The position numbers and the translations under genes were made by a program. The notes beneath the pieces are model-generated. The model did not search any database. It was not told the origin of the DNA and saw nothing but the letters and a program-made list of their open reading frames with translations. Positions 12,608 to 42,888 of a stretch of 64,000 nt of DNA are shown here, piece by piece. Each line of letters opens with the position of its first letter. The stretch's first letter is position 1. Source of the DNA: a virus; IMG/VR virus record IMGVR_UViG_3300007351_000587; one strand, 5' to 3'.

Positions 12608-12680
12608 GGACCACTGGCATGTCTGGGATTGCATCCGCCTGTTAAGCGGAATTAGCTGGGTCCGATTCCCAGGTGGTCCT
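12608..12680 (+). tRNA. tRNA-Asn(GTT)
   Basis: GGACCAC/GTGGTCC acceptor; TCCGC-CTGTTAA-GCGGA; T-arm CTGGG-TCCGATT-CCCAG; no CCA. Confidence 0.85.
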
Positions 12681-13500: not shown

Positions 13501-14574
13501 TTGAATGACAGTATGATTGTAACTGAGGATACTCCAAAAGAATTAATTGCAACATGCCCTAAGTGCAAAAACGTTGAGGTTCGTAGAAAGAAGAAAACAG
13601 GGAGAATTCCTTATTGTTTTGATTGTTTTAAGAAAACTAAACATTGTGATAAGAATGGAAATAGAACACCAAACAAAGCAATACCTTTTGAATCTCTGTG
13701 CCAATATTGCAACAGTAAGTTTTTATATTCTAAAAAGAGAAATAAACATGGAACTTTTGTTTGTGAAAATTGTATAGGGCTTCACAAGGAGAACTTATAT
13801 CAAAGAAAGAAATCTCATATAATACAAAACTACAGAGAAAATGTGGATTTGGAGAAAAGAAAGAGATTATCTAGAGAGTTACCAAAAGTTGGACTTTCTA
13901 TAGAATGGTACGATTTGTTGGAAAAGAAATGTGGAATTTGTGGCACGTGCGATTTTGCTAACAATTGGTGTTTAGATCATGATCATAATTGTTGTCCATA
14001 TGGTGAATACTGTAGTAAATGTGTCAGAGGCATTCTTTGTGAGAGATGTAATGTAGGATTAGGAGGGTTTAAGGAAAATACAGAAAGTCTATTATCGGCC
14101 ATTGGATGGATTATGCATCAGAAAGATTCTCCGCAAGGATTAGGAATTACTTGTTTATATTGTGAAAATGCATATAAACCTCAAGATAAATATAAATGGT
14201 CTCATAAAATTTGTGTGGATTGTAAATCTAAATATCCCAAGAGGGGTTGTAGAAAACAATTGAGAGACGAGTGGAAAAACAATCCAAATGTTAGAAACAG
14301 AAAAAGGTTAATTTCAAAACTCAATAAAATTGGGGTAAGTGTTGAATGGTATGAGAAATATTCACGAGCATGTGGTATTTGTGGGTGTACAGATCAATTG
14401 TCAATAGACCATAAACATGGTTGTGAGTTTTGTAATTATTATTGTTATTTGTGCATAAGAGGCTTGTTATGTAGAAATTGTAATTTTGGACTAGGATGTT
14501 TTAAAGACAACGTTAAAACACTAGAAGCAGCTATCAAATGGTTGCAAAGTAAAGGATGTAATAGAAATGACTAA
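13501..14574 (+). CDS. Endonuclease VII-like (His-Me finger) homing endonuclease with two tandem nuclease-like repeats
   Basis: CGICG...LDHDH...RGILCERCNVGLG and CGICG...IDHKH...RGLLCRNCNFGLG. Confidence 0.82.
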   Translation: MNDSMIVTEDTPKELIATCPKCKNVEVRRKKKTGRIPYCFDCFKKTKHCDKNGNRTPNKAIPFESLCQYCNSKFLYSKKRNKHGTFVCENCIGLHKENLYQRKKSHIIQNYRENVDLEKRKRLSRELPKVGLSIEWYDLLEKKCGICGTCDFANNWCLDHDHNCCPYGEYCSKCVRGILCERCNVGLGGFKENTESLLSAIGWIMHQKDSPQGLGITCLYCENAYKPQDKYKWSHKICVDCKSKYPKRGCRKQLRDEWKNNPNVRNRKRLISKLNKIGVSVEWYEKYSRACGICGCTDQLSIDHKHGCEFCNYYCYLCIRGLLCRNCNFGLGCFKDNVKTLEAAIKWLQSKGCNRND

Positions 14575-15775
14575 AGCCATTATAACTGTGGGATTGGGGT
14601 GGGGAGATGAAGGAAAGGGAAGTACCGTAGATTACCTTGTTAGAAAGTGCAATTCCAAATTAGTTGTACGGTATTGTGGTGGATCTCAAGCTGGACATAA
14701 CGTGGTTTTACCTGATGGTAGAAAACATTGCTTTTCCCAATTTGGATCAGGCACACTAGCTGGAGCTAAGACATATTTAGGGAAACACGTAATCATCCAT
14801 CCTTCCAATCTTAGAAATGAGGCAAGGCATTTGAAGGAATTAGGAATAGATAATCCAGCATCCTTGTTGACTATTAATAAGAATGCTTTAGTTTCTACTC
14901 CTTATCATGAAGCAATTAACCGTGCTAAAGAAATATCTAGATCTGATGTTTTAGTAAACACACATGGTCGTAAAGATGATTTGAGACATGGATCTTGTGG
15001 TCATGGAATTGGTGAAACCCGTAGATATTGGAAAGATTATGGAAGTGATGCTGTGTTTGTAGGGGATTTATTTGGTTCTAAGAGCGTGTTGTCTGATAAG
15101 CTTGAATTGATGCGTCAACGATTGATGGATAAAAATTATAAGCATGCTTACTTATATGATGGTGGTGTAATAGGAAAAGATGGACCTTATAACCCTGTAT
15201 GGGATGAGTTTGATCCAATTTTTACTGAAAAGATGAGTGTTGTAGTAAATGATTTGGTAAAAGATCAGTATTTTAAATATTCTGTAGATTCTAATGGTAT
15301 TCCAGAGATATGGAAGTATGAGGGGACACCAATTATATTTGAAGGGGCGCAGGGTGTACTACTTGACGAGTGGTATGGTTTTTTCCCTTATGTAACTCAT
15401 AGTACTCTTACTCCTAGATTTGCTATTGAGACGTGTGATGAAGCTAAAATTGATGATTATTATGTGTTAGGAATTAGTAGATCTTATATGACTCGCCATG
15501 GTCATGGTCCTTTTCCAACATATAGTGAAGAACTAACCGAACAGTTTAAAGATGACGGAAATCCCCAAAACCAATGGCAGGGGAGTTTAAGATGTGGTAA
15601 GTTAGATATGGGGTTATTGAGGTATTCGGTTAGATGTTGTGATGGAATTGATGGTATCGCTGTAACATGTTTGGATCAGATTAAAGACCATGAATTGAGT
15701 GAACTGGCTCCAGTTGTTCTGGAGTCTTATGGGCCAACTTATTTAGATAGAAAAGAAGTTGGTGTTTTAAATTGA
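14567..15775 (+). CDS. Divergent adenylosuccinate synthetase (PurA-like)
   Basis: GLGWGDEGKG, QAGHNV, FEGAQGVLLD, YMTRHGHGPFPT. Confidence 0.85.
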   Translation: MTKAIITVGLGWGDEGKGSTVDYLVRKCNSKLVVRYCGGSQAGHNVVLPDGRKHCFSQFGSGTLAGAKTYLGKHVIIHPSNLRNEARHLKELGIDNPASLLTINKNALVSTPYHEAINRAKEISRSDVLVNTHGRKDDLRHGSCGHGIGETRRYWKDYGSDAVFVGDLFGSKSVLSDKLELMRQRLMDKNYKHAYLYDGGVIGKDGPYNPVWDEFDPIFTEKMSVVVNDLVKDQYFKYSVDSNGIPEIWKYEGTPIIFEGAQGVLLDEWYGFFPYVTHSTLTPRFAIETCDEAKIDDYYVLGISRSYMTRHGHGPFPTYSEELTEQFKDDGNPQNQWQGSLRCGKLDMGLLRYSVRCCDGIDGIAVTCLDQIKDHELSELAPVVLESYGPTYLDRKEVGVLN

Positions 15776-37958: not shown

Positions 37959-38242
37959 TGACTGAATACAAAACTGTATATGAATTATTAGAAGACCCAA
38001 ACAGATGGTGTAAACAATATATGGCATTGAATAGTAAATTGAACCCAACTGGATGTAGAAATGAAGATGCTATTTGTTGGTGTGGCATGGGCGCAATAAT
38101 AAAAGTGTACAAGACCCAAGATGAGATTGATAAGATAATTGATAAAGTTTGTAAAGAAGTTGGGCATCGTAGTATTACTTATTGGAATGATTGTAATTCC
38201 CATAATAATGTTTACAATGTTTTTAAGAAACTTGGAATTTAA
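37958..38242 (+). CDS. Conserved phage hypothetical protein (DUF6197-like)
   Basis: RWC...CWCGMGAI...WND. Confidence 0.6.
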   Translation: MTEYKTVYELLEDPNRWCKQYMALNSKLNPTGCRNEDAICWCGMGAIIKVYKTQDEIDKIIDKVCKEVGHRSITYWNDCNSHNNVYNVFKKLGI

Positions 38243-38250
38243 ATTTCAGA

Positions 38251-38276
38251 AAACCTTTTTAAACGGCCAACGTCTA
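38251..38276 (+). promoter_or_regulatory. ECF-type promoter, copy 4, upstream of the Y-RNA/tRNA/ro60 cluster
   Basis: AAAC 38251-54, N16, CGTCTA 38271-76. Confidence 0.72.
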
Positions 38277-38356
38277 GTTATTAGCGGAAAGGAATTTTAA
38301 GTTTTTCATTATTTTAGGGTTTTCTAATCAAAATAGAACCGCTATAATAATTATAG

Positions 38357-38396
38357 CCTTGGGACGGTTGAGCCAGTTCGACTCTGGCACCGAGGA
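38357..38396 (+). ncRNA. tRNA top-half mimic (acceptor-like stem + T-arm only)
   Basis: CCTTGG/CCGAGG; GCCAG-TTCGACT-CTGGC; ends 2 nt before Y-like element 1. Confidence 0.45.
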
Positions 38397-38398
38397 AT

Positions 38399-38468
38399 AG
38401 ATAACGTGGTGTAGAACAGGGTTACTTCATATGGCGAAAACACCTTGTTCGCTTTGTTCCCGTTATCT
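38399..38468 (+). ncRNA. Y-RNA-like element 1 (short)
   Basis: AGATAACG/CGTTATCT stem; TGGTGTAGA...GTTACTTCA...GC-TTTGTTCC shared motif. Confidence 0.72.
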
Positions 38469-38471
38469 TAT

Positions 38472-38544
38472 TTCGGCGTGGAGAAGTGGTTAACTCGTCA
38501 GCCTCATAAGCTGAAGATCGCTGGTTCAAATCCAGCCGCCGAGA
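38472..38544 (+). tRNA. tRNA-Met(CAT), partly initiator-like
   Basis: TCAGC-CTCATAA-GCTGA; T1:G72; GCTGG-TTCAAAT-CCAGC. Confidence 0.88.
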
Positions 38545-38546
38545 CT

Positions 38547-38617
38547 ACTTCCGTGGTGGAGATTACGAGTACATCACTGTTAATGATCCCAACTCGTAAA
38601 CGTTTGTTCCCGGAAGT
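38547..38617 (+). ncRNA. Y-RNA-like element 2 (short)
   Basis: ACTTCCG/CGGAAGT; TGGTGGAGA; TTACGAGT/ACTCGTAA; TTTGTTCC; apical ATCA-CTGTTAA-TGAT. Confidence 0.72.
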
Positions 38618-38620
38618 TAT

Positions 38621-38695
38621 CTGACTGTGGTGTAGCCTGGTCAACATACGTGCGTTGGAAGCACGGGAGCGCTGGTTCAAATCCAGCCAGTCAGA
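38621..38695 (+). tRNA. tRNA-Pro(TGG)
   Basis: CTGACTG/CAGTCAG-A; CGTGC-GTTGGAA-GCACG; unusual G32 and A37. Confidence 0.8.
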
Positions 38696-38699
38696 CTTT

Positions 38700-39278
38700 A
38701 TGGCAAACTTGTATCATAAGTTTCTGAATAAAAAGAATAATGCTGCTAAAGAGGGTATTGGATTTTATCTTACGTTTACAGAACTGTGTTCTTTGTTAGA
38801 AGAAGCCCAAATTTGTGAAGACGATTGGTCCAATACAGGGTATCATTTAGCTAGATACAACGATGTTGGGGACTACAAAATAGGTAATTGTAGATTTATT
38901 CCTTATCGAGATAATATTAGTGAAAAGAAGATTTCAGAAGCATCTATAAAGGCCGCAAAAATTAATATTAAAAAGGCACTTGTTTCTCTTACTGAAGATC
39001 AGAAGTTTGAAAGAAACAAAAAAGGAGGTAAAAAAGGAGGGGGAAGTAATAAGGTTACTGATAATGAATTGATTGCATTATATGAAAAAGTGTCCCAAAT
39101 AGATTTTAACAAATGGGGATCTAAAGGGGTTGCTGCAAAGATTCTTGGTTGTAGTCATACCCAAATTGTCAGATTGTTGAAGAAATGGAAAAATTTAGGA
39201 TTGATTGAAGAATATAAGAATAGAAAATTGGCCTGTTCGTCTAACGGTCAGGATAACTGGCTTTCATCCAGTAGATAG
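38700..39278 (+). CDS. HNH-like homing endonuclease with C-terminal HTH; 3' end overlaps tRNA-Glu
   Basis: HLARYNDVGDYKIGNCRFI; ATG 38700; stop inside the tRNA-Glu T-arm region. Confidence 0.68.
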   Translation: MANLYHKFLNKKNNAAKEGIGFYLTFTELCSLLEEAQICEDDWSNTGYHLARYNDVGDYKIGNCRFIPYRDNISEKKISEASIKAAKINIKKALVSLTEDQKFERNKKGGKKGGGSNKVTDNELIALYEKVSQIDFNKWGSKGVAAKILGCSHTQIVRLLKKWKNLGLIEEYKNRKLACSSNGQDNWLSSSR

Positions 39279-39301
39279 GGGTTCGATTCCCCTATGGGCT
39301 A
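39230..39301 (+). tRNA. tRNA-Glu(TTC)
   Basis: ACTGG-CTTTCAT-CCAGT; AGGGG-TTCGATT-CCCCT. Confidence 0.85.
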
Positions 39302-39303
39302 AT

Positions 39304-39436
39304 AGCAGCGTGGCGTAGAGATCGGTTACTTCTCAATTGGTATGAGGCGATGTGGGTTCGAGTCCCACCTATAGAGAAATCTATAGTCTTCTAATGGTAG
39401 GATGCTACGTTACTGGTTTCGCTTTTTCCCGTTGCT
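39304..39436 (+). ncRNA. YrlA-type Y RNA (element 3) with permuted tRNA-like domain
   Basis: AGCAGCG/CGTTGCT; TGGCGTAGA; T-arm GTGGG-TTCGAGT-CCCAC; closed acceptor CTATAGA-GAAA-TCTATAG; D-like TCTTCTAATGGTAGGA. Confidence 0.8.
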
Positions 39437-39443
39437 TATTTGT

Positions 39444-39516
39444 GGGCTCGCATGATCCAAGGGGGCGAGGATGCCTTGCAAGCAACCTGTGAAGGGTTCA
39501 ATTCCCTTCGGGTCCA
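39444..39516 (+). tRNA. tRNA-Ala(TGC)
   Basis: G3:T70 pair; loop CTTGCAA; GAAGG-(G)TTCAATT-CCCTTC T-arm. Confidence 0.82.
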
Positions 39517-39518
39517 CT

Positions 39519-39660
39519 GAGTGGTATGGCGTAGAGATGGGATACTTCATAGGAACCGCCAAAGTGTTGGTTCAAATCCAACCCTCCCGACTTATCGGGA
39601 GGTAGCCCAAAAGCAGAGGCAGCGGTAGCAAGACACCTATTTCGCTTTTTCCTACCACTT
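39519..39660 (+). ncRNA. YrlA-type Y RNA (element 4) with permuted tRNA-like domain
   Basis: AGTGGTA/TACCACT; TGGCGTAGA; GTTGG-TTCAAAT-CCAAC; CTCCCGA-CTTA-TCGGGAG; D-like GTAGCCCAAAAGCAGAGGCA. Confidence 0.8.
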
Positions 39661-39666
39661 TAATCT

Positions 39667-39736
39667 TGACTTGTGGCGTAGACAACAGTTACTTCACTTG
39701 TAATGAAAAGCCTGTTGTCGATTTGTTCCCAAGTCA
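39667..39736 (+). ncRNA. Y-RNA-like element 5 (short), followed by a T7 tract
   Basis: TGACTTG/CAAGTCA; TGGCGTAGA; GACAACAG/CTGTTGTC; TTTGTTCC; apical TTCA-CTTGTAA-TGAA. Confidence 0.75.
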
Positions 39737-39775
39737 TTTTTTTATTTCCTTGAATTTCCTTTGAAGGAGGAAACA

Positions 39776-40480
39776 ATGGCGGCTACTAACAAGAAAGTTA
39801 CTGGTATTAACACTTACGAAACTGAGCGTCTTGCCGGTGGATATGGTCCAAAGGCTGCAAGACAGCCTGAAGAACAGCAGCTTCGTAGATTGGTAATGGC
39901 TTGTTTACTTTGGGAAGATATTGCGTATTTGGATGGTGAGAAGGTCGTAGACAGCATTCGCAGTTTGATACATAAGTTGCCAGCTAGTGTGGTATCTAGT
40001 ATTGCAGTTGAAGCTCGTTTCGAGCAGAAATTACGTCATGTTCCCTTGCTGTTGGCTCGGGAACTTGCTCGCCATAAGGATACTTCTTACACTGCTCATA
40101 CTTTGGCTAAGGTAATCCATCGTCCTGATGAATTGTCTGAGTTCTTGTCTTTGTACTGGAAGGACAATAAGGACAAGGATGGTAAGCCAAAGAAGACTTT
40201 GAGCGCACAGGTAAAGAAGGGATTGGCTATTGCATTCAATAAGTTTAATCAGTACCAGTTGTCCAAGTGGGACAAGGATAGCAAGGAAATTAAGCTGCGG
40301 GATGTTATGTTTCTTAGCCATCCAAAGCCAAACCAGGATCAAGTCACTTTGTGGAAGCAGTTGGCAGAGAACAAGTTACCACCAGCTGACACCTGGGAAG
40401 TGATTCTCTCTGGAGCAAAAGAAAATGGTTTGAGCAAGACCCAAGCTTGGGAGAAAATAATTGATATGTGGGTAGATTAA
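39776..40480 (+). CDS. Ro60/Rsr TROVE-domain protein, N-terminal half
   Basis: LRRLVMACLLWED, LRHVPLLLARELA, RPDELSEFL, QVKKGLAIAFNKFNQYQLSKW, LRDVMFLSHPKP, DTWE; AAGGAGG SD. Confidence 0.88.
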   Translation: MAATNKKVTGINTYETERLAGGYGPKAARQPEEQQLRRLVMACLLWEDIAYLDGEKVVDSIRSLIHKLPASVVSSIAVEARFEQKLRHVPLLLARELARHKDTSYTAHTLAKVIHRPDELSEFLSLYWKDNKDKDGKPKKTLSAQVKKGLAIAFNKFNQYQLSKWDKDSKEIKLRDVMFLSHPKPNQDQVTLWKQLAENKLPPADTWEVILSGAKENGLSKTQAWEKIIDMWVD

Positions 40481-41310
40481 TGAACAGAAAAGAATTGCCA
40501 ATTGCTGAAATAGTTTCCTTATACTTACAAGGTATTTCTATAATGCAACTAGCAGAGAAGTACAATGTTTGGACAGGGACGTTAAAGAATAGGCTAGTAG
40601 AAGCCGGAGTTATATTGAGATCTCATAAAGAATCCCTTCAGCAATTATCAGCTAGAAAGTTAATGTCAGATTCTGCAATTGGTAGAGCGTCTTGGAACAA
40701 GGGTCTAACTAAATATACTCATAAAAGTATTGCTTCTGCTGCGAACAAACTGAGAGTTTCTAATATTGGCCATTTTGTAAGCGATGAAACTAAAGAGAAG
40801 CATAGAATTGCTGCAATTAAAAGAGGTAGACGATTTCCATACTATGCTAATTGTGTAGAATGTGGGAGGAATAAAAAAGAAAATCGTTGTAAACTTTGTA
40901 GAAAATGTACATCTAAAAGGGCATTAAGGTTTTGTTCAATTTTAAGAAAGACCAAGCCTGAAATAAAAGTAGAAAAACTGCTTGGTTATTTGTTTGGGCA
41001 GTATTCTCCGTATGAGTATACTGGATCCAGAAGCTTCTGGATTGATTTTTTGAATGACAAGAGGAAAAACCCAGATTTTACAAGTTTTGAGTTGAATAAA
41101 GTTATTGAAGTGTTTGGTAGATATTGGCATAAAGATGAAGATCCGAATGATTTAATAAAACAATATAAAGATGTTGGATGGGATTGTTTAGTTCTTTGGG
41201 AAGATGAAGTGAATGCTGATTCAATCTATAATTTTACATTTCCTTGGGAATATTTAGCTGAAATTGAAAAGTTTAGAAAAGAAGAATTTTATGGGGAGGA
41301 AGTAGCATGA
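40480..41310 (+). CDS. Vsr/DUF559-like homing endonuclease inserted in ro60
   Basis: N-terminal HTH; KTKPE...NPDF...VIEVFGRYWH...LVLWEDE; TAATG and ATGA couplings at both ends. Confidence 0.8.
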   Translation: MNRKELPIAEIVSLYLQGISIMQLAEKYNVWTGTLKNRLVEAGVILRSHKESLQQLSARKLMSDSAIGRASWNKGLTKYTHKSIASAANKLRVSNIGHFVSDETKEKHRIAAIKRGRRFPYYANCVECGRNKKENRCKLCRKCTSKRALRFCSILRKTKPEIKVEKLLGYLFGQYSPYEYTGSRSFWIDFLNDKRKNPDFTSFELNKVIEVFGRYWHKDEDPNDLIKQYKDVGWDCLVLWEDEVNADSIYNFTFPWEYLAEIEKFRKEEFYGEEVA

Positions 41311-42053
41311 CTGTCAGAAATCATTTTGCTATTTTAAAGAATCTGAGAAACATCAAAGAAGCAGGTGTTTCTTCGGAACATATGAAAAAACTCAGAAGGT
41401 CTTTTCTTGATCCTTCTTGGGAAAAGGCAATGACTGTGCCAATAGATTTTATAAAGGCGCAAAAATACATGCCTGAGTTCAGTCGAGAAATAGAAACAGC
41501 AATGTTGTCTTCGTGCAAGGGTTTTCCCAAACTTCCTGGGTTTACAATTTTCATTGTAGACGTTTCAGGCTCTATGGGTGCCCCAATGTCTGGCAAGAGT
41601 GAATTTAATAGAATGGAAGCAGCAGCTGCTATGACTGTATTAGCAGCTGAAATGTGTGAACATATCAGTGTTTATGCAACTGCAGGAAGCGATAGTTATC
41701 GTAAGCATCAAACTGCGAAGATTAATCCTCTTCGTGGATTTGCTTTGTCTGAAAAGATTTTGGAAGCCCAGCATAGACTTGGCGGAGGTGGTATCTTCAC
41801 TCGTCAAGCTTTGGAGTATGTGAAGGAACACGAAAAAGAAACTCCTGATCGTATTGTTGTATTTTCCGATAGTCAGGATTGTGATTGGGAAAACAGTCGT
41901 AAGCCTAATCCTTTTGGAAAGTACAATTATATTGTGGATGTTTCCAACCATCAGCATGGTATCAATTACAAGGGAGTGTGGACTGCTGAAGTTTCCTCTT
42001 GGTCAGAAGGGTTTTTGAAGTATATAGCAGCATCTGAACAATGCTTAAATTGA
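41307..42053 (+). CDS. Ro60/Rsr C-terminal half (end of TROVE + vWA domain)
   Basis: AILKNLRNI; IVDVSGSM MIDAS; RIVVFSDSQD. Confidence 0.88.
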   Translation: MTVRNHFAILKNLRNIKEAGVSSEHMKKLRRSFLDPSWEKAMTVPIDFIKAQKYMPEFSREIETAMLSSCKGFPKLPGFTIFIVDVSGSMGAPMSGKSEFNRMEAAAAMTVLAAEMCEHISVYATAGSDSYRKHQTAKINPLRGFALSEKILEAQHRLGGGGIFTRQALEYVKEHEKETPDRIVVFSDSQDCDWENSRKPNPFGKYNYIVDVSNHQHGINYKGVWTAEVSSWSEGFLKYIAASEQCLN

Positions 42054-42054
42054 A

Positions 42055-42888
42055 ATGAAAAAATGGTTTGGCACTAAATTCAACATGACATCTGGAATTT
42101 ATGTTATGTGTTCGACTATAGATTCCAGATGTTATGTTGGAAGTGCTACTAGATTAGGAAAAAGGTTTAATGGACACAAAAAAGATTTGTGTAGAGGAAG
42201 TCATCCAAATAAGAGATTACAGAATTTTGTTAACAAATATGGAATTGATTGTTTAAGATTTGATATTTTGGAATTTTGTAAAAAGGAGGATTTGATTAGA
42301 CGGGAGCAATATTATATGGATGAACTTAAACCATTTTTCAATATTGCACCTAAAGCTGGTAACACATTAGGAGTTGTTTGTTCTCCTGCGACTAGAGAAA
42401 AAATAAGCAATGCTAATAAGGGAATTACAAAAAAACAACCGCCAGAATGGATTGATAATGTTAGAGCATTGCTTAAAGAAAGAAATGTCTCTCAAGATAT
42501 GAGAGATAAGATTAGAAAAACAAAGAGCACTCCAGTTTCCCAATATTCCTTTGAAGGAAAACATATCAAAGATTGGCCTTCTTCTAAAGAAGTTTATAGA
42601 CAATTGGGAATTGGTGGTGTGATGGCTTGTTGTAAGGGAAAAATGAGAGAATCTGGAGGATTTAGATGGAGATTTACTTCTGAAAACTTGTTGGAACTTC
42701 CTCCTTATAAAAGACATTGTATCAGAAAAGTCAAAAACAATGTGATGAAATCGCCTTTTATTAATAAAGTATGTATTTATTGTTCTGCGCTATATAAAGT
42801 AAGACAGTTTGTTGCTTGGAGAAGTAAATATTGTAGTGAGTCTTGTAAGTTTTTGTATCGTAAGTCTAATAATGCGCCACTGGTATAG
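42055..42888 (+). CDS. GIY-YIG homing endonuclease with NUMOD3/NUMOD1-like domains; 3' end overlaps tRNA-Gly
   Basis: SGIYVM...CYVGSA; VSQYSFEGKHIKDW...GGFRW. Confidence 0.85.
   Translation: MKKWFGTKFNMTSGIYVMCSTIDSRCYVGSATRLGKRFNGHKKDLCRGSHPNKRLQNFVNKYGIDCLRFDILEFCKKEDLIRREQYYMDELKPFFNIAPKAGNTLGVVCSPATREKISNANKGITKKQPPEWIDNVRALLKERNVSQDMRDKIRKTKSTPVSQYSFEGKHIKDWPSSKEVYRQLGIGGVMACCKGKMRESGGFRWRFTSENLLELPPYKRHCIRKVKNNVMKSPFINKVCIYCSALYKVRQFVAWRSKYCSESCKFLYRKSNNAPLV

Follow-up and report, generated by a model that had tools for sequence, protein, structure and literature searches.

Y RNAs encoded beside bacterial and phage Ro60 genes, their mimicry of tRNA, the presence of a second, short Y RNA and complexes of phage Ro60 with Y RNAs are already known. 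In YrlA (RF02553; PMC4201824; 6CU1, Wang et al. 2018, 10.1101/312249), a Ro-binding stem carries a YUAY motif together with tRNA-like parts whose order is permuted, namely a T arm, a closed hairpin resembling an acceptor stem, and a D arm. YrlB-type RNAs (S. Typhimurium YrlB, M. smegmatis YrlB and D. radiodurans Yrn2) are short Ro60-associated RNAs encoded beside rsr on the same strand. They fold into a long hairpin whose Ro-binding motif lies close to the 5' end and whose apical loop is small, and they are co-transcribed with a longer tRNA-like Y RNA (PMC4201824). In vitro, the Ro60 protein from Thermus phage phiLo binds Yrl1 and Yrl2, two Y-like RNAs whose genes lie directly upstream of its own, and forms a ternary complex with host PNPase (PMC12135203). 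It has long been asked which factors bind the effector-facing, variable end of Y RNAs from bacteria and phages. Here we describe a locus in a 64,000-nt stretch of viral DNA (IMG/VR record IMGVR_UViG_3300007351_000587; hereinafter the window, meaning the whole stretch), in which a dense non-coding array at positions 38399-39736 of the plus strand contains five Y-RNA-like genes, three short (Y1, Y2 and Y5) and two long (Y3 and Y4), interleaved with tRNA genes.

The short RNAs of the window share with the YrlB-type RNAs their gene position, strand and hairpin layout, and are predicted to share the association with Ro60 and the co-transcription. They differ in the apical loop, which is described as 'small pyrimidine-rich' in YrlB-type RNAs, whereas in the window family it is often a 7-nt anticodon-like loop with a fixed frame and a variable triplet. 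They also differ in number and setting, with up to three short copies in one array punctuated by tRNAs, and there is no detectable sequence similarity. Y3, Y4 and their long relatives have the same parts as YrlA, in permuted order in the long members. RF02553 scores are 33-43 bits for the long relatives and 16.6 bits for Y3 (Rfam, E <= 10, 38200-39800, a search in which the short elements had no match); all of these fall under the gathering score of 69, which places them outside YrlA. The RF02553 consensus has no hairpin between the YUAY motif and the T arm, whereas the long relatives carry there a 5-bp hairpin with a 7-nt CU-NNN-RA loop, with an AGGUC linker after it. According to Wang et al., 'YrlA lacks the anticodon loop' (10.1101/312249), and Chen et al. 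describe at the same place just a 'less-conserved' V stem-loop (PMC4201824). The phiLo protein (9KOP, 9L5Y) is the closest solved relative of the window protein clade; its locus has two RNAs and the window a five-member tRNA-interleaved array, and the Ro60 gene of the window is split by an open reading frame (ORF). The phiLo paper makes no mention of anticodon-like tips, and its text does not contain the word 'anticodon' (PMC12135203).

We think it fairly probable that Y1, Y2 and Y5 are minimal tRNA-derived Y RNAs of one Ro60 clade, built from a Ro60-docking stem and a tip homologous to the tRNA anticodon arm, and acting by the mechanism proposed below. Where the earlier view was mimicry of the tRNA elbow, the window family has a mimic of the anticodon arm, sometimes as the sole module on a Ro60-docking stem. 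In the literature searched, we found no Y RNA hairpin that resembles an anticodon arm and combines a conserved frame with a hypervariable triplet, no minimal Y RNAs carrying just that hairpin, and no tRNA-punctuated arrays of them.

The Y RNA family and its apical hairpin

All five elements of the array have a common layout. Specifically, the 5' half consists of a terminal stem, GUGGYGUAGA, a helix, GUUACUUC and a variable apical part, and the 3' half of the helix return strand, CGCUUUKUUCC and the terminal-stem return strand. The short elements are 70-71 nt long (YrlB-sized), with a 7-8 bp terminal stem, a conserved internal loop (GGYGUAG on the 5' side, CGCUUKUUCC on the 3' side), an 8-9 bp helix, UACUUC and one hairpin. 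Chen et al. (2014, PMC4201824) described a GNCGAA(N)G motif, linked to Ro60 recognition, and a YUAY motif. The family motif GGYG[U/A]AG, which reads GGYGUAG in the window and GGCGAAG or GGUGAAG in some relatives, corresponds to the former, and the family UUAC motif corresponds to the latter. The motif-bearing stem of a Y RNA is thus present in the window, one base off the published motif. Y5 ends 40 nt before the Ro60 start codon on the same strand, within the distance of about 2 kb from a Ro60/Rsr gene expected of a Y RNA. Because both motifs have their counterparts, the window elements are Y RNAs by all sequence-testable criteria, and they are predicted to bind Ro60.

The same scaffold occurs upstream of Ro60 homologues (45-56% identity) in viral contigs. 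A scaffold alignment of 14 short elements, with compensatory changes in 12 of 15 pairs covering the terminal stem and the second helix, was used to build a covariance model, R1. Loci were sampled from the Ro60 candidates, 80 of 316 viral and 80 of at least 577 genomic ones. R1 matches 71 elements in the window and 32 loci, 143 further elements in 72 viral loci, and 221 further elements in 79 loci of bacterial and archaeal assemblies, which include Acidobacteriota, Alphaproteobacteria, Moraxella, Chloroflexota and candidate-phyla metagenome-assembled genomes. In total, about 190 loci hold 435 elements near Ro60 homologues, and every one of these elements is on the strand of its Ro60 gene. De-duplication of the aligned hits left 353 distinct elements, namely 162 short, 63 intermediate and 128 long ones (T loop present); tip statistics for short elements were computed on 158.

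Arrays of six to eight mixed short and long Y-like elements stand 5' of a single Ro60 gene at five loci (L183, L177, L112, L157 and L141), far larger than the two Y RNAs per locus described before.

The original prediction, made from the letters of the window, described the apical hairpins of Y1, Y2 and Y5 as 7-nt anticodon-like loops on short stems, the second loop base being U and the sixth a purine. The three hairpins stand exactly as described, and they are apical in the minimum free energy folds of the whole elements (z = -3.6, -3.1 and -3.9 against shuffles for Y1, Y2 and Y5, respectively). The loop of Y2, CUGUUAA, is indeed that of the tRNA-Asn encoded at 12608-12680. The likeness to anticodon loops holds for Y2 (GUU) and Y5 (UGU), which are canonical. 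It is less clean for Y1, which had been called His-like but weaker: although Y1 nominally fits the loop pattern, its tip fits better a rarer, D-loop-like type (A..UGG) that is found in 17 of the 158 short elements and includes the Y3 hairpin (AUUGGUA).

The window hairpins have 3-4 A/U-rich bp and fold at 0 kcal/mol when excised; therefore, they would not carry the claim by themselves, and the excess over chance comes from the homologues. A tip of at least 3 bp with a 7-nt Y-U-NNN-R loop is present in 64 of 158 short elements, compared with 3.6 +/- 1.8 (max 10) in 200 shuffles that kept the UACUUC motif. Among long elements, 44 of 128 have a Y-U-NNN-R tip, against 5.2 in shuffles. For hairpins of at least 4 bp just after UAC, 7 nt is the only loop length that exceeds the shuffled expectation, with 60 observed and 12.4 expected in short elements, 61 and 20.5 in long ones, and 20 and 8.2 in intermediate ones. 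One might suppose that short A/U-rich hairpins merely happen to have 7-nt loops, as the instability of the excised hairpins and the small number of window cases, three with one non-canonical, would allow. The observed count, the enrichment specific to one length and the covariation of the stems described below make such a coincidence very improbable.

The remaining 77 of the 158 short elements have other loop lengths (3-6 or 8-10 nt), degenerate versions or no hairpin. Free variation of the loops in length and sequence, which the original prediction had named as evidence against itself, is thus found in about half of the short homologues and not in the part with canonical tips. In that large part of the family, homologous loops keep Y-U-NNN-R(A) and the triplet varies, as had been foreseen, with 35 triplets among 117 canonical tips. 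We conclude that the anticodon-like tip, though frequent and selected, is not obligatory.

Choosing hairpins by energy is unreliable in the long elements, where G-U-rich alternatives win; therefore, we relied on shuffle tests and on columns defined by anchors only, unselected for any hairpin. These columns were taken from the 41 distinct long elements (39 loci) that have a distance of 35 nt between the UAC motif and the T loop. Their consensus is UAC-UUCGc-CU-NNN-aA-gCGgG-nGGUc-GCgGG-UUCGA. The information at loop positions 1-7 is 0.82, 1.30, 0.15, 0.08, 0.22, 0.79 and 0.96 bits, respectively. The 5-bp stem is paired in 185 of 205 cells, and a shift of the 3' strand by 1-2 columns leaves 85-127 paired. 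Covariation is seen at the closing pair (CG 23, AU 9, UA 4, GC 2), and 27 different triplets occur. In 22 long RNAs that are at least 80% identical, the stem UUCGC/GCGGG is essentially invariant, and the triplet columns have a mean pairwise difference of 0.6-0.73, compared with 0.27 for the whole RNA.

CUGUUAA, the loop of Y2, is the commonest tip of the family; no fewer than 9 different stems, which covary, carry it. GUU is the most frequent triplet among the canonical tips (19), followed by GCU, UGG, UGA and UGU. A is under-represented at position 34 (11 of 117; tRNA numbering), and U occupies position 36 in 50% of canonical tips.

Counterpart of the hairpin in tRNA and in long Y RNAs

In the long relatives, the hairpin has the dimensions and the neighbours of the anticodon arm of a class I tRNA. 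Specifically, the 5-bp stem corresponds to 27-31/39-43, the 7-nt loop to 32-38 and an AGGUC-type linker to 44-48, and a 5-bp T stem with a UUCGA T loop follows 3' of the linker. Positions C32, U33, R37 and A38 of the loop are conserved and the triplet is nearly random. The likeness to a tRNA anticodon stem-loop thus comprises the 7-nt loop with Y32, U33, R37 and A38, the free triplet and, in the long relatives, the 5-bp stem. The differences are that the window stems have 3-4 bp, that the short RNAs have no acceptor end and that some triplets are non-bacterial.

ARAGORN, run blind on all loci, called about 19 long elements as tRNA with this hairpin as the anticodon arm. The gathering score of the Rfam tRNA model is reached by five, in loci L021 (33.9 bits), L183 (31.8 bits), L054 (31.3 bits), L015 (29.7 bits) and L157 (29.3 bits). 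The short elements Y1, Y2 and Y5 are not called by ARAGORN or the Rfam tRNA model and do not qualify as functional tRNAs. The original prediction had set the long elements apart as mimics of the tRNA elbow and acceptor; these parts are there, and they are not the whole, since the long relatives carry the same hairpin at the site of the anticodon arm.

Judged from sequence, the hairpin of the short RNAs is the homologue of the first hairpin in the long YrlA-type members, and the short RNAs would be a Ro60-docking rod with that hairpin only, the T, acceptor and D parts being absent. Because the same hairpin stands at the anticodon-arm place in the long relatives, Y2 and Y5 appear to be anticodon-arm mimics by family descent. 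In the dimeric-tRNA origin model, as quoted by Wang et al. (10.1101/312249), the anticodon arm of the first tRNA lies just 5' of the variable loop and the T arm, and the family hairpin lies where that model puts it. Its position is sequence-level support for the descent of Y RNAs from tRNA dimers.

A second long architecture was observed in which UACUUC is followed by a tRNA body in normal order, with a D-loop-like AGUGGUAGAG, an arm of 5 bp that closes a 7-nt loop, an AGGUC linker and finally the T arm (L120:2272-2407, L147:2281-2420, and loci L133, L121, L128, L152, L154, L161 and L188). UACUUC-AGUGGUAGAGC is close to U8-A9 and the D arm of an ordinary tRNA (UAGCUCAGUUGGUAGAGC). Because of this resemblance, the UACUUC motif may be derived from U8-A9 together with the D stem's 5' strand.

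Possible partner of the tip

We propose that the array is co-transcribed with its interleaved tRNAs and that the Y RNAs would be excised by tRNA-processing enzymes, because the spacers are just 0-7 nt. The stem would dock on the phage Ro60 ring, as for other Y RNAs, and the tip would then be presented to a partner able to recognise an anticodon loop by its U-turn frame but blind to the triplet. A candidate partner is an anticodon-loop-directed tRNA enzyme or nuclease, for which the tip may act as a recruiter or as a competitor (decoy). In a search for an intramolecular partner of the triplet, no column was both informative and complementary. The fixed Y32, U33, R37 and A38, the unconstrained positions 34-36 and the lack of a pairing column fit a partner that reads architecture, not identity. 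The fixed frame and free triplet narrow the search to factors that read anticodon-loop architecture, and RNAs of 70 nt are easy to synthesise for pull-down, modification and nuclease assays.

Besides the instability of the excised hairpins, several observations weigh against the reading of the tip as an anticodon-arm homologue with a partner. The 7-nt tip is not essential, because about half of the short homologues are without it. The variability of the triplet is that of unconstrained columns and may therefore be plain drift, not selection. About 10% of the triplets are A-initial or otherwise non-bacterial (for example AUU, ACU, AAA, AAU and UCA), and 16 of 39 distinct tip loops are identical in all 7 nt to a real tRNA loop of the same data set, which does not significantly exceed the 13.8 obtained with shuffled columns. 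Finally, published work assigns the anticodon-stem position to the Y stem and regards a hairpin at this place as a 'variable arm' (PMC4201824; 10.1101/312249). The hairpin would be the anticodon arm by its position in the sequence, and both three-dimensional stacking and a protrusion like that of a variable arm are compatible with this.

The same variability and loss bear on the main rival explanation, namely that the hairpin is a remnant of the anticodon arm of an ancestral tRNA or tRNA dimer, kept as a stable cap or as a spacer that gates the Ro60 cavity, with no partner specific for the loop. Such a remnant could readily switch to loops of 3-6 nt or drop the tip, as many short relatives have done, and the Rfam YrlA consensus has no hairpin here at all. 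Nothing covaries with the triplet, and GUU and its one-step neighbours dominate, with U in half of the tips at position 36, as for drift from a single ancestor. The frame speaks against it: positions 32, 33, 37 and 38, like the 7-nt length, persist between loci with Ro60 proteins of only 45-55% identity, and across fully covaried stems. A mere cap would not need the frame, and tetraloops are more stable. We therefore regard a partnerless remnant as unlikely, if the most serious of the alternatives.

Another explanation goes further than a partner blind to the triplet. In it, tips held by Ro60 imitate the anticodon loops of given tRNAs and soak up or divert tRNA-cutting nucleases of host defence or toxin systems, or loop-modifying enzymes, much as the original prediction had supposed when it suggested that the short RNAs could be decoys. 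A conserved frame with a variable triplet would suit such a role, as would the position of the array within a phage tRNA island. Hughes et al. (2020, PMC7790460) suggest that YrlA's tRNA-like domain might competitively inhibit an anticodon nuclease, which is induced together with the rsr-yrlBA-rtcBA operon; the Salmonella YrlA itself was not cut by the nuclease (PMC7790460). A pattern of this kind comes from a cluster of 22 long RNAs of Acidobacteriota (loci L024, L027, L123, L127, L135, L136, L138, L141, L144, L147, L148, L152, L154, L157, L168, L172, L177 and L183), in which all 13 triplets are genuine bacterial anticodons. As real tRNAs do, these RNAs have G37 where the triplet is UGG, CGG or CAG, and A37 where it is GUG. 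Together with the rarity of A34, this pattern favours some real mimicry.

The position-37 rule is confined to that cluster; outside it, the association of G36 with G37 is weak (p = 0.02 on arms, 0.19 on distinct loops). Other expectations of a decoy also failed. The triplets do not track the local tRNAs, with a match to a tRNA gene of the same locus in 5 of 29 cases compared with 3.4 expected (p = 0.24). Phage loci are not enriched, the tip being present in 43% of short elements from viral loci and 36% from genomic loci. Among genes within 2.5 kb of Ro60, none besides Ro60 is conserved, be it a nuclease, a ligase or another partner. Avoidance of repeats within arrays is not significant (0 of 12 triplet pairs identical, 1.1 expected). 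Because four predictions failed, triplets foreign to tRNA occur and exact loop matches stay at the null level, and with half of the short homologues devoid of such a tip, the decoy is a minority possibility, which we hold to be rather unlikely. A stronger version, in which the tips are exchangeable tRNA-identity baits, one tRNA species being imitated by each docked Y RNA and several by an array, the enzymes are captured, inhibited or handed to Ro60-PNPase and the triplets evolve in an arms race, seems to us improbable. Were it right, there would be a direct tie between Ro60 and conflict systems that target tRNA. Phages and bacteria would then use Ro60 and its Y RNAs as a counter-measure to tRNA damage, and the long forms would amount to permuted tRNAs that are complete, anticodon arm included.

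The array and its gene neighbourhood

The order of the array is Y1, tRNA-Met, Y2, tRNA-Pro, a 192-aa ORF, tRNA-Glu, Y3, a tRNA-Ala-like element, Y4 and Y5, and a Shine-Dalgarno sequence and the start of the Ro60-like gene lie directly 3' of it (Table 1).

Table 1. Features of the Y RNA array and the adjoining Ro60-like gene in the window
Feature	Coordinates	Strand	Basis	Remarks
Y1, short Y-like RNA	38399..38468	+	covariance model R1 65 bits, E = 3.9e-19; fold	8-bp terminal stem, GGUGUAG / CGCUUUGUUCC internal loop, 9-bp helix, UACUUC motif, apical hairpin
Y1 apical hairpin UUC-AUAUGGC-GAA	38426..38438	+		D-loop-like tip type (A..UGG), no clean anticodon mimic
tRNA-Met (CAU)	38472..38545	+	ARAGORN; Rfam tRNA 65 bits	abuts Y1 and Y2
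Y2, short Y-like RNA	38547..38617	+	R1 61.9 bits, E = 4.3e-18; fold	
Y2 apical hairpin AUCA-CUGUUAA-UGAU	38573..38587	+	sequence, fold	anticodon-loop-like, GUU triplet
tRNA-Pro (UGG)	38621..38696	+	ARAGORN; Rfam	
192-aa ORF inside array	38700-39278	+	phrog_16521, no Pfam match	3' end overlaps tRNA-Glu gene
tRNA-Glu (UUC)	39229..39302	+	ARAGORN; Rfam	abuts Y3
Y3, long Y-like RNA	39304..39436	+	R1 43.1 bits; Rfam YrlA 16.6 bits against gathering score 69; fold	after UACUUC: hairpin CUCA-AUUGGUA-UGAG (39332-39346), T arm, 7-bp closed acceptor-like hairpin, weak D-like region
tRNA-Ala(UGC)-like gene	39444..39516	+	sequence read directly	between Y3 and Y4
Y4, long Y-like RNA	39519..39660	+	R1 39 bits; fold z = -3.6	T arm, 8-bp closed hairpin; first hairpin shrunk to UUC-AUAG-GAA
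Y5, short Y-like RNA	39667..39736	+	R1 64.7 bits, E = 5e-19; fold	followed by U run
Y5 apical hairpin UUCA-CUUGUAA-UGAA	39693..39707	+	sequence, fold	anticodon-loop-like, UGU triplet
Ro60-like N-terminal half (divergent TROVE domain)	39776..40480	+	homologue profile	
Inserted ORF, 280 aa	40468..41310	+	weak helix-turn-helix matches	splits Ro60 gene
Ro60-like C-terminal half (vWA domain)	41307..42053	+	Pfam VWA_2 2.9e-8, vWA_Ro60 4.6e-4	

The arm of Y5 has an identical copy in another locus (L142:282-360). In the tRNA-Ala-like gene, the acceptor stem is 7 bp long and includes G3:U70, the anticodon arm has the loop CUUGCAA and one A-A mismatch in its stem, and the T arm is normal; the D region is aberrant and enlarged, and ARAGORN does not call it. 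Its acceptor and T parts give weak tmRNA and mascRNA-type matches in Rfam, and the uncultured huge phage LR756511 (595 kb) contains a stretch with 92% identity to it. A blastn search of the array against GenBank phages returned matches only to the tRNA genes and this element. A scan for promoters and terminators across the array gave background levels. Among sequencing runs, no RNA run was listed as containing this stretch, and one freshwater DNA run shared a small part of its sequence words.

Just 5' of Y1, at 38357-38395 of the plus strand, a 6-bp stem CCUUGG/CCGAGG encloses a T-arm-like hairpin, GCCAG-UUCGACU-CUGGC. It resembles the 'top half' minihelix of a tRNA and might mark a processing site at the 5' end of the array (its fold z is only -1.2). 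At locus L012, a 73-nt element 5' of the Y array (L012:3049-3121, plus strand) aligns with the two ends of the tmRNA model (65 bits) and lacks the whole middle; it is a tmRNA-like tRNA domain without the message part.

The N-terminal half of the Ro60-like protein has no Pfam match by itself. A profile of 14 homologues matches the phiLo Ro60 structures 9KOP and 9L5Y (E = 3e-16), and an unsplit homologue (L022:3001-4344) matches Pfam TROVE at 2.7e-13. Stop and start codons overlap at both edges of the ORF inserted in the Ro60 gene, and this ORF probably encodes a homing endonuclease. The vWA half is followed by a GIY-YIG endonuclease gene (42055-42888) that runs into a tRNA-Gly.

Genes for an RtcB ligase (G000 C12:18010-19077) and an Rnl2-type RNA ligase (C4:702-1298) occur on other contigs of the same assembly bin; these genes cannot be tied to the phage-like contig. 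A search for a T4 Rnl1-type ligase gave no match, but neither did the controls.

The neighbouring genes are phage-like and lie on one strand, encoding homing endonucleases, endonuclease VII, ribonucleotide reductase, a PurZ-like enzyme and NAMPT. The ORF at 14567-15775 (plus strand) matches phrog_1211, a PurZ-type 'aminoadenylosuccinate synthetase', at 3.5e-69, suggesting that the phage may swap adenine for 2-aminoadenine in its DNA.

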